Source: Podarcis pityusensis
Lineage: Eukaryota
Assembly: GCA_964106645.2 (NCBI GenBank)
Contig: OZ067042.1
Direction: 5' to 3' (one strand)
Length of the DNA: 64,000 bases
Shown piece after piece: positions 15,864 to 38,348 of the stretch. The translations under genes and the position numbers were made by a program. Within the stretch, counting starts at the first letter, position 1; each line of letters starts with the position of its first letter. The notes beneath the pieces are model-generated. The model did no database searches. It was not told the origin of the DNA and saw only the letters and a program-made list of their open reading frames with translations.

Positions 15864-16144
15864 ACCTTCTCTACACCAATGTATGTGCTTCTGGAAGAGG
15901 TAAACTCTACTAGTTCCTGTAATATGACTCTGGAGACTGCACAACTCAGAAAGCAGCCCTGGATGAATTATTACAATGACCTTACAATTACAGCGACTAT
16001 TACAATGTAATTAAATCCTTTCCCCCCACCCCCAAGTGGTAGGGAGCACCACACAGATAAAAATAAGTCCCAGGCTGCAAGTGCAAATATACCTTCACTG
16101 GCTCTGCCTCCAGTGTATCAATATCAAGCCCATTGTGGACTTGT

Positions 16145-17129
16145 CAGTGGCGTAGCGTGGGGGGTGCAAGGGGTGCCGGCCGCACCGGGCGCAACATCTG
16201 GGGGGGCGCACTCGCCACCTCCAGAGTCGCCGAAGAGCCTCGGGGCTCAGCTCCTTTGGGAGGAGGGGTCGGGCTGGGTGACCAGGGGGAGTAGCAGGCG
16301 CTAGCAAGGAGGTCCGGAGCCGGAGCCTGGCCAGGATCGGGCGCGGGATGGGGCGCAAGAGGGAGGGGAGAGTCGAGCCTGTCCGCCCCGCGAGGACTGC
16401 TGCGAAGAGGCGGGAGGGAGAGGAGGCCCCTTGGGAGGAGCGGGCAGGTGCTGGGGCGGCAGTGCCGGGCGGGGGCCGAGGGGTGGGCGCCCCCCTGCGC
16501 GGGCATCGCCTCGCCGCCGCCGCGGGCATGGCTGGGCGACCGGCCGAGGGGAAACGCCAAACAAGGCCAGGATCCAGGCCCCCGCTCTCCTTATTTGGCG
16601 CCCATTTCCGGCTCCCGGGTGGCCTCCTCCCACCCGCTCTCGCTACCAGTGGAAAGAGAGACGGAGGAGCAGCGGAACCCGCAGCCTTTGCAGGCGCTGC
16701 CGGCCGGGAGAGGGGAGCGCGGAGGAGCCCCGCGGGGCCTGGGCCCGGCCAGCCGAGGGATCTTGTGGCGAGGAAGGAGCCCAGTCTGCGCCCTCCTTCC
16801 CCACAGAGCTGCAGAGGGAAATCAAGGTTCTCCTGCTAGTTTCTCTTCTTCTCTCCCCCCCCCCCACTGCGTTACAACCGTGCCCCCCCTCTCGGTGCAC
16901 ATAGCACGATTGCAATCTCTCTCTCACCCCCCCCCCCCAAGTTAAACTAATGGAGCAAGCCAGCGCCAAAGATTTGTAGAACTGTGAATACCCGGCCCAG
17001 GCAGCAGCAAGAAGCTGGCAGCGGCGGCAGGTTAGGGGTTAGGGGCGCAAATTACTTGCCTTGCCCCGGGTTAGGGGGCGCAAATTACTTGCCTTGCCCC
17101 GGGTGCTGACAACCCACGCTACGCCGCTG
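16145..17129. mobile_element. Non-autonomous hAT (Tip100-like) element, 985 bp, with GC/CpG-rich cargo
   Basis: 17-bp TIRs cagtggcgtagcgtggg / cccacgctacgccgctg (1 mismatch); exact 8-bp TSD ggacttgt at 16137-16144 and 17130-17137; two ~31-bp subterminal repeats at 17035-17102; no transposase ORF. Confidence 0.9.
16589..16611 (-). promoter_or_regulatory. Candidate serum-response-element module (ETS + CArG) inside the hAT cargo
   Basis: CArG consensus CCTTATTTGG at 16589-16598; ETS site CCGGAAAT on the minus strand at 16604-16611; function untested. Confidence 0.4.
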
Positions 17130-17217
17130 GGACTTGTGCTAGCCAAAAGCCTGTCATTCCTTGTTCCCTTTCTGAGTCTTAATTCTGAAAACTTCCCAAG
17201 GGCAGTCCAAAAGCCTG

Positions 17218-17358
17218 CAGCTGGTGTGCAGAATCTTTGGCCCTCCAGCTGTTGCTGAACTGCAACTCTCATCATCCCTGGCCATTGGCTATGCTTGCTG
17301 GGGCTGATGGGAGTTGTGGTTTAGCCACAGCTGGAGGACCAAAGGTCCCCCACGCCTG
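17218..17358. mobile_element. Short palindromic hAT-type MITE
   Basis: Internal inverted repeat caactctcatca / tgatgggagttg; related degenerate copies near 8355-8440, 20960-21098, 45940-46060 and 60040-60150. Confidence 0.65.
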
Positions 17359-26859: not shown

Positions 26860-27075
26860 TGAAACCAGTCCCTGGTAAACCATATTTCTTTTAATAAGAC
26901 ACCTTTTAAGATATTTGACAGTGCCTCTTGTCCCCATCTCTTCTGTAAGCTAAATGTGGCCGGTCCTATTTCCCCTTTATAGGTTGTGCGTTCTATAAAC
27001 CCTTTATTTGTCCTTGTTTCTTTAGTATGAATCCTTTCCAGTTTGTTTGTATCTTTATAATGTGGTGGCCAGAAG
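26860..27075 (-). mobile_element. Ancient CR1 ORF2 fragment
   Basis: Minus-strand FWPPHYKDTNKLERI...FSLQKR resembles CR1 FWAPHYKKD..KLERVQRRA...FSLEKRR. Confidence 0.7.
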
Positions 27076-36157: not shown

Positions 36158-36560
36158 CATTAAATTTTTTTTTTTTAATGGATGTACCGTGCTATATTAC
36201 AAGCAAAAAAACACACCTTTATTGATGAATTGGAAGAGCCGCAAAAAGATTCCATTGAGCACATGGATTGATAATATGGACAGATTAGCTACATATGAAC
36301 GAATTGTATGCCGACACAAATTAAGAATGGATAAATATGAAGAAATCTGGAATGAATATTGAAGTGATAAGGTGGATAGTGGAGGGAAGTGGGGGCGGAG
36401 AGAGAGGTGGGAAAATATTGTTAAAAGGGGGCAGTCATAAGTATATCAGTGTATTTAAATCTGAATTGTCAAATTGTGTTATTATTGTTATTATGGTTTT
36501 TGTTGTAGTTTTTTGTGGTTTTTTTGTATCGAAAAAGTGATTAAATAAATTTTAAAAAAA
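36158..36560 (+). mobile_element. 5'-truncated L1-clade LINE (ORF2 C-terminus, 3' UTR, A tail)
   Basis: Translates WMYRAILQAKK.../LLMNWKSRKKIPLSTWIDNMDRLATYERIVCRHKLRMDKYEEIWNEY*, the WK..P..W...E...W pattern of non-mammalian L1 ORF2 ends; AATAAA and A tail at 36544-36560. Confidence 0.7.
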
Positions 36561-36806
36561 TACCTCGTGTTGCGTTTGCTTCAGGTTGAGCGTTTTCAGG
36601 TTGCGTCCCACGGCAACCCGGAAGTACCGGAAAGGGTTACTTCTGGGTTTCGCCACTCGCGCATGCGCAGACACTCAAAATGACGTCACACGCATGTGCA
36701 GAAGCAGCCAATCGCGACCCGCGCACGCACAGATGCGGGTTGCATTCTGCTCGGGTTGCGAACGGGGCTCCGGAACAGATCCTGTTCACAACCAGAGGTA
36801 CCACTG
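36561..36806 (+). mobile_element. Tc1/mariner (Tigger-like) MITE, left TIR interrupted, CpG-rich interior
   Basis: Right end agaggtaccactg|ta; starts with tacctc; the missing ta|cagt is at 36152-36157. Confidence 0.8.
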
Positions 36807-37453
36807 TAGTGGGATCTTGGGGTGTGGGCCAGAGGGAGGGAGGCTGAAGAAAGTTGCTTCCAAAACACGTCCTCTGAGAGAAACATGGCTCTGCGGGCAA
36901 AAGTTGCACAGCCGCTGCAACGTCCAGTCTAAAGGAGTGTTGGACACTCATTATAAACAGTGGAGGGTTTTTAATGATGCCACTTAGCTGGAGAGGTTGG
37001 TTGTTAGCAGAAGTGTGGAGAAGAAACCAGGATGTCATGCATACTTCCTTTCCCCAATGCTATGTGTCAAGTCTGAAGAACCGCTGTTCTGTCTCAAAGG
37101 TAACAGATTGAAGAGGTGACATCAGTCAGCAATGAAAGAGCTTCTGCTGCCCTCTCCTGGTTAGGATTGAGCTGTACTGTGGCAATCCTACTTTCTTCCT
37201 GCTCTTAGATTGCAGCTGTTATTTTCAAAAAAGGTTTGCAAGGGTGGTGGAGCAGGCTGTGTGTTTGTGTCCACAATAGCGTGTGTGCACATGTGTGTGT
37301 GTGTTAGTCTCATGATACAGAAATTTATCAGAAGGCACCTCACTGATAAGCATCAGCCATTACAGGCTTGCACAAAACAATTTGGAAGTTAGGAAATGGC
37401 AGCAAGGCAATTAAAAACCATCACAGCTTGTGCTCTTTTAAGTTTCCACTCAG

Positions 37454-38276: not shown

Positions 38277-38348
38277 GGACTTGAGCGAGAACCTCCTTCT
38301 GGCTGTTCCCAGGAAGGCGTTTCGTGGAGCTACTGATCTCAAGAACCT
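38277..38348 (+). CDS. SLIT1: SLIT1 exon 5 (72 nt, LRR D1): [23 protein letters not shown](L)
   Basis: ctgcag|GGACTTG...AACCT|gtgagt; one 24-aa LRR, phase 2/2. Confidence 0.95.

Follow-up and report, generated by a model that had tools for sequence, protein, structure and literature searches.

A multicopy Pack-hAT element with an EGR3-upstream CpG island as cargo in a SLIT intron of Podarcis pityusensis

How does a CpG island come to lie inside an intron, framed on both sides by the ends of a DNA transposon, and does it do anything there? The question is raised by a 985-bp element at 16145-17129 of the window, that is, of the whole 64,000-nucleotide stretch of Podarcis pityusensis DNA that was analysed. 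The element has 68.7% GC and a CpG observed/expected ratio of 0.67, versus 0.22 for the 64-kb window. Its 500-bp bins alone exceed 60% GC and 52 of the 60 nucleotides at 16441-16500 are G or C, which confirms the statement of an earlier note on this DNA that it is the only CpG-island-like block in the window. The 17-bp terminal inverted repeats (TIRs; 16145-16161 and 17113-17129) are complementary at 16 of 17 positions, a perfect 8-bp target-site duplication (TSD), GGACTTGT, flanks the element on the left (16137-16144) and on the right (17130-17137), and two subterminal repeats of 33 bp each lie at 17035-17100, all as first described. An exon scan of the window and 200 kb upstream places exon 1 of a SLIT gene at about -52.5 kb relative to the window, three 72-nt LRR exons at -25450, -24986 and -23310, and exon 5, with which the coding sequence resumes after the element, at 38277-38348 on the plus strand. 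The scan thereby bears out an insertion in intron 4, which is roughly 61.5 kb long; the SLIT promoter island is ~69 kb from the element. The best PDB match of the host gene supports the Slit family, an atlas search with it gave Slit/LRR leads alone (all under 0.9), and the paralog is presumably SLIT1. With high confidence, we read the element as one of eight copies of a hAT transposon with EGR3-upstream DNA as cargo, which likely replaced GNAL cargo by a template switch, was likely moved by the family's transposase and is probably methylated and neutral.

The ends belong to a large family: the TIR 17-mer has 5,965 exact occurrences in the genome, versus 0 for a control. A DUF4371 search returned 19 matches, and 5 of the 12 regions examined have the element's termini with TSDs. 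The transposase-coding copies L141 (1562-6381), L142, L143 and L144 lie on C13, C1, C14 and C5 of G000. L141-L143 are 4.8-5.2 kb long, with the same TIRs, their own TSDs and an open 841-codon frame (1-10 nt apart in 2,523), while L144 is frameshifted and a further copy, L149, is internally deleted. PF05699 (hAT dimerisation) and PF14291 (DUF4371) score above cut-off in L141 and L142, and L142 has the D, D, CxxH, W and E motifs with an intact DDE triad, judged by motif patterns that we take to be those of the superfamily; against PDB, the transposase has no match at E 1. Perfect 8-bp TSDs flank all eight EGR3-cargo copies, and 251 of 332 end pairings in the examined loci are perfect, the others being largely inner-TIR mispairings. 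The Buster subgroup of hAT elements has TA at TSD positions 4-5; a central TA occurs in 9 of the 251 TSDs here, which does not fit Buster; the family may be Tip-like. The transposase copies match the element at its positions 1-65 and 892-985 alone. The family's left end (TIR and subterminal DNA) lies at 16145-16209 (plus strand; 95% over 65 nt to L141) and its right end (33-bp subterminal repeats and TIR) at 17031-17129 (plus strand). With only its ends matching, the element is a non-autonomous hAT, as proposed. An origin of the interior in an autonomous element, one of the outcomes that the earlier note had set against its own reading, is unlikely: the interior has no match to the cognate autonomous copies, the set with which it was compared. 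The EGR3-cargo copies were likely moved by the intact transposase of this family.

Where the interior does come from was indicated by two genome searches that returned the same ten loci. With the whole element as query, nine matches reached 99-100% and a tenth, gapped, 81% (40 scored of 1858 candidates); the interior-only search, with 10 of 10 candidates scored, gave nine element matches and one TIR-free donor. Eight matches are insertions with their own perfect TSDs, separated pairwise by 0-8 substitutions (mean 3.4), so that the suspected amplification of the cargo is real; the ninth is a truncated duplicate of locus L007, with 0 flank differences in 1500 nt. The tenth, G000:C15:43222765-43223533, is the TIR-free host source that the earlier note had suggested looking for. 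The two-exon gene downstream of it has 98% identity to a lacertid EGR3, and protein matches of 95-99% to Lacerta, Zootoca and Podarcis indicate a lacertid lizard. The donor corresponds to the cargo at 16245-16988 on the minus strand (the element's plus strand being the donor's minus strand), with 654 matches, 39 mismatches and several indels, a divergence of 5.6-6.2% of aligned sites plus indels. The donor island extends beyond both cargo junctions, the last letters of the cargo join a common repeat at the donor, and no TIR-like 14-mer was found in the 10 kb around it. The element thus has two of the features by which Tan et al. (2021) define Pack-TIRs, namely TIR-transposon ends on both sides and a parental copy unlinked to the transposon, and those of multicopy cases: distinct TSDs, copies distant from the parent and an empty orthologous site. 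On the remaining feature, an interior other than transposon DNA, the observations are the missing match to the cognate autonomous copies, the ten genomic matches in all and the common repeat at the donor. It is a multicopy Pack-hAT that has captured and amplified host DNA.

The earlier note had taken the cargo for a host promoter or first exon. That host DNA was captured stands, but the donor is a distal island: it does not overlap the EGR3 start site or exon 1, and the proximal CArG/CRE promoter is 3.3 kb further downstream. Since 3,349 bp separate the donor CArG box from the proximal CArG box and 3,863 bp separate it from the ATG, both downstream of it, the donor is more probably an upstream island or enhancer than a promoter or first exon; an upstream non-coding transcript at this island is possible. 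The minus-strand 144-codon open reading frame (16095-16529) that had been read as part of a gene start does exist but is accidental. Its ATG is private to two of the eight copies and absent from the donor, T stands at 16528 in all four sequencing runs, and the frame exits through the left TIR and terminates in flanking DNA; we reject it as a gene.

Within the cargo, a consensus CArG box, CCTTATTTGG (16589-16598), and an ETS site, CCGGAAAT on the minus strand (16604-16611; plus-strand letters ATTTCCGG), lie 5 nt apart, just as first noticed. The CArG box is the same as the donor's in all eight copies. The ETS core is kept, and its two differing flanking letters (donor, CCGGAACC) represent one CpG transition and one transversion; this core contains a CpG and is presumably methylation-sensitive. 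Shuffling the cargo 5000 times by dinucleotides produced a CArG box 87 times, a CArG box with GGA[A/T] within 10 nt 27 times, and a CArG box with CCGGAA within 10 nt 0 times. Perfect CArG boxes in the 20 kb around EGR3 number two only, the donor's and the proximal one. The immediate-early SRF/TCF context that the arrangement had suggested is thereby supported by the donor itself, which lies upstream of EGR3; in mouse macrophages, Egr3 is reported to be SRF- and ELK4-dependent (PMC4023608; for mouse also PMC5827560). The element resembles the immediate-early serum response element described there (PMC4023608) in its CC(A/T)6GG box with adjacent ETS site, derived from the locus of an SRF/ELK4-dependent gene, but the lizard box is distal rather than proximal, likely methylated and of putative binding and activity.

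The age of the capture and that of the SLIT insertion have to be kept apart. Relative to the donor, 13 CpGs have become TpG or CpA in the element and 0 have changed in reverse, so that the EGR3 copy represents the ancestral state; with this polarity, strong-to-weak changes number 29 versus 3 in reverse. CpG transitions affect 13 of 128 sites versus 6 of 509 elsewhere (8.6-fold, p 5e-6), an excess that would be expected if the DNA was methylated in the germline during much of the period after its capture, and 60 of 79 CpGs survive. Contigs in three of the four runs (X1, X2 and X3) show the empty site that the earlier note had suggested looking for, with 16136 joined to 17130 and a single GGACTTGT; the flanks have 0-1 differences in X1 and X2, X3 is another organism, and in X5 the flank contig ends at 16136 among the matches listed. 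The SLIT insertion is therefore recent and not fixed. The cargo-bearing element, in turn, is present in all four runs, at a depth of 74-226 versus 9-33 for the flank, so the capture must have occurred before these organisms diverged. Of the two explanations once offered for the preserved CpGs, a recent insertion or an unmethylated one, the first holds for the insertion (the capture being older), but the second is not supported, given 13 CpGs lost and none changed in reverse. The element also differs less between organisms than its flanks do (5/634 vs 22/757, p 0.005, and in a second comparison 5/746 vs 18/749, p 0.01, both among the matches listed and from collapsed contigs, which drop variants); this may be a sign of exchange between species. 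Over window positions 16187-17037, the cargo-bearing copies in X3 and X5 have 16- and 4-nt deletions in common, and their introgression is possible.

Might the copies nonetheless be working mobile serum-response enhancers or promoters, with SRF and TCF binding the CArG/ETS pair and MAPK inducing transcription at SLIT or at the neighbours of the other seven sites? We consider this improbable. In its favour, the CArG box is intact in all eight copies and derives from one of only two perfect boxes around EGR3, the ETS core is kept with flanks nearer than the donor's to what we take to be the consensus, and the cargo still has 69% GC and an o/e of 0.66 over 761 nt. The SRF/ELK4 dependence of mouse Egr3 (PMC4023608) would fit as well, as would the hypomethylated and open state reported for expressed rice Pack-MULEs (PMC5861414). 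Yet an unchanged 10-nt box is expected about half the time at 6% divergence, so that the CArG box needs no selection to persist. Moreover, the 8.6-fold CpG decay, the CpG inside the presumably methylation-sensitive ETS core, the SLIT insertion not being fixed and its ~69 kb distance from the promoter island all argue against it, and SRF binding by the lizard donor box is itself putative. No RNA run is listed for the locus. Partial activity is possible because 60 of the 79 CpGs and the CArG box survive, while regulatory function at SLIT is probably absent. The probably methylated and neutral copy thus remains the preferred reading.

How the EGR3 DNA entered the transposon can be read from its junctions. 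Subfamily B elements (~420-590 bp) have 100 bp of left end and 150 bp of right end in common with the element. Their interior is TIR-bound at 29 of 30 loci and TIR-free at one, L057 (267 candidates, 40 scored, 30 examined), which comprises the first exon of the long isoform of GNAL and the DNA upstream of it; the GNAL remnant thereby does overlap a gene start and first exon. On its left side, the element retains 31 nt of GNAL coding sequence (16214-16244, minus strand; first codons of the long-isoform exon 1, 29/31 identical to L057), and on its right side ~8 nt (16989-16996, minus strand). At the left junction (16239-16244), CTCGGG is common to GNAL, element and EGR3 donor. At the right junction (16981-16988), the donor has ACTGTGAA like the element (8/8), GNAL has ACCGTAAA, and the carriers have ACCGTAAA (17/29) or ACTGTAAA (3/29), a microhomology imperfect to GNAL at 6-7/8; matches of 6-8 nt in GC-rich DNA can also arise by chance. 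Because the cargo lies between GNAL stumps and each of its two junctions has microhomology, EGR3 DNA likely replaced older GNAL cargo, and the junctions suggest template-switching repair as the mechanism. Among the 10 of 10 scored candidates of the interior search, none is an intermediate that retains more of the GNAL cargo. The GC-rich segment at 16997-17030 (plus strand), common to the 425-bp subfamily A and to subfamily B and without counterpart in the transposase-coding copies, is likely a remnant of still older cargo. A GNAL-cargo family member (L038 6529-7004) lies ~36 kb downstream of the EGR3 donor.

The history that we favour starts from what is observed, a hAT family of ~3,000 members with intact transposase copies, one subfamily of which has the GNAL 5' end as cargo. 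A break inside such a copy would have been repaired from the EGR3 upstream island via 6-8 nt of microhomology per side, with GNAL stumps left behind and the donor kept intact. The product has reached eight sites in this genome and is present in several copies in related organisms, its CpGs decay at a rate typical of methylated DNA, and the SLIT insertion is recent, with empty alleles elsewhere. That the capture instead occurred by aberrant excision of two neighbouring insertions, as in the Pack-CACTA model documented in Arabidopsis (PMC6379663), is very unlikely. The proximity of L038 to the donor and the nested forms with an extra inner TIR (F, G, L141) would suit such an origin, but both junctions fall within GNAL cargo, with stumps and microhomology on each side, and the donor is intact and without TIR relics. 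The two stumps largely refute aberrant excision for this element, although nested subfamilies may have formed in that way.

In a hand-picked sample (20 stretches, selected for their length among the first 100 TIR places of contig C1), minimal 130-170-bp elements occur beside several unrelated GC-rich interiors. The family as a whole has at least six multicopy cargo subfamilies, with 8 to over 1000 search candidates. Subfamily A (~425 bp; 1122 candidates) has no donor among 40 scored of over 1000 candidates. Its copies (L015 and ~1000 others) are 99% identical, with a 277-bp, 68% GC, 5'-UTR-like interior whose 3' end survives in subfamily B and in the present element. Subfamily D (L102, L104 and L112; three copies seen) measures 550-580 bp and has another GC-rich, 5'-UTR-like interior. 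Subfamily E (L110, L153-L182; 826 bp, 55 matches) keeps GNAL stumps before a different, CpG-island-like interior and is a second daughter of the same GNAL carrier; 45 of the 55 matches were examined and no donor was found, all being element copies (one right end only). Subfamily F (L111, L183-L212; 1375 bp, 52 matches) is likewise CpG-island-like inside, and two patterns with 52 matches each gave no donor among 42 examined, all with element ends. The F interior also contains a mini-element, a repeat rich in A and T, and an exon/GTGAG boundary.

Subfamily G (~1050 bp, 10 full-length TIR-bound copies) does have a donor, which is TIR-free and 95.5% identical over 851 nt; it is the CpG island found 7.5-8.6 kb ahead of the start codon of GAS2L1. 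Elements L238-L242 (960-1010 bp, many copies) have the first 46 nt alone in common with the G cargo, and one G-type copy (L224/L225, G000:C2:122.54 Mb) sits just beyond the end of an open frame that we take for a class C GPCR (vomeronasal-type) exon. All three traced donors (GNAL, EGR3 and GAS2L1) lie at gene-5' CpG islands in this hand-picked sample, where any enrichment is putative; the family captures such islands repeatedly. The GAS2L1 island also supplies positions 65-856 and 1613-1673 of L141 (84-97%), upstream of the inner inverted TIR, and captured host DNA may thus drive the transposase. The 5' part of the transposase-coding copies further contains a 56-bp tandem repeat in variable number, an unrelated repeat at ~860-1610 and the inner inverted TIR at 1675-1692. 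In L149 and L115, a different 5' part, marked by paired CCAAT boxes, a splice donor and an ETS-like core, may represent the promoter and first exon native to the transposase. The converse history, in which the interior is transposon DNA and the EGR3-upstream sequence an old element copy, deprived of its ends and later domesticated as an enhancer, is hardly credible: the several indels and the search of one genome would allow it, but CpG polarity makes the EGR3 copy ancestral, the donor island continues past both junctions without TIR traces, the interior is unmatched in transposase copies, two other cargos derive from the 5' ends of genes, and X1 and X2 have 1.2-kb contigs of single-copy depth that match part of the cargo and continue beyond it.

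An animal survey reports 370 Pack-TIRs in 100 genomes, 208 of them hAT, and 4 multicopy among 281 unique ones (Tan et al. 2021, PMC8277862); multicopy host-DNA capture, there reported as rare (4 cases in 100 genomes), is repeated in one lizard family. Pack-hAT-N8_XT of Xenopus tropicalis (PMC8277862) likewise has hAT ends around host DNA and a TIR-free parent on another chromosome, and the multicopy cases described in that paper have distinct TSDs, microhomology and GC-rich cargo; a FoSTeST-type origin fits the lizard element. The frog examples of that survey, however, have 3 and 5 copies, versus at least six multicopy subfamilies in the lizard family, which differs from the cases given there in its serial cargo replacement, intact transposase and non-coding CArG/ETS cargo. 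Rice Pack-MULEs (PMC5861414; PMC8277862) are similar in repeatedly capturing and redistributing GC-rich gene DNA, many being multicopy with interchromosomal donors. Plant Pack-hAT and Pack-CACTA elements (PMC8903248, PMC6379663) offer Pack-type hAT elements and cargo from more than one locus, but in plants, and the Pack-CACTA excision model misfits the lizard junctions. In the literature listings searched, which cover few subscription papers, we found neither this hAT family nor a vertebrate case of serial cargo replacement nor a serum response element borne by a transposon; the ends may already have a name in repeat databases.

Because the captures are repeated, their order is legible in the junctions and the transposase is intact, the family makes the acquisition of DNA by Pack elements, by gap repair or fork switching, testable in a vertebrate. 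Presence/absence variation likewise makes it testable whether transposons spread an existing host enhancer, as opposed to evolving a new one, with filled and empty alleles as a natural control. A bolder view, which we regard as rather unlikely, is that the family serially swaps gene-5' islands, that its transposase copies run on the GAS2L1 promoter island and that the EGR3 copies are polymorphic MAPK/SRF enhancers spread by hybridisation; if true, regulatory rewiring could be observed while segregating in wild populations.

Three further features of the window deserve mention. Beside the element, a 56-nt inverted repeat at 17223-17356, high-copy in X1, X2, X3 and X5, probably belongs to a common class of small repeats. 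At 26974-26983, the same intron has another perfect CArG box, without GC-rich context. Finally, a CpG-rich (o/e 0.9) short palindromic repeat at 36560-36810, with ends CTCGTGTTG.../...GAGGTACCACTGTA, is likely a TA-target miniature element.
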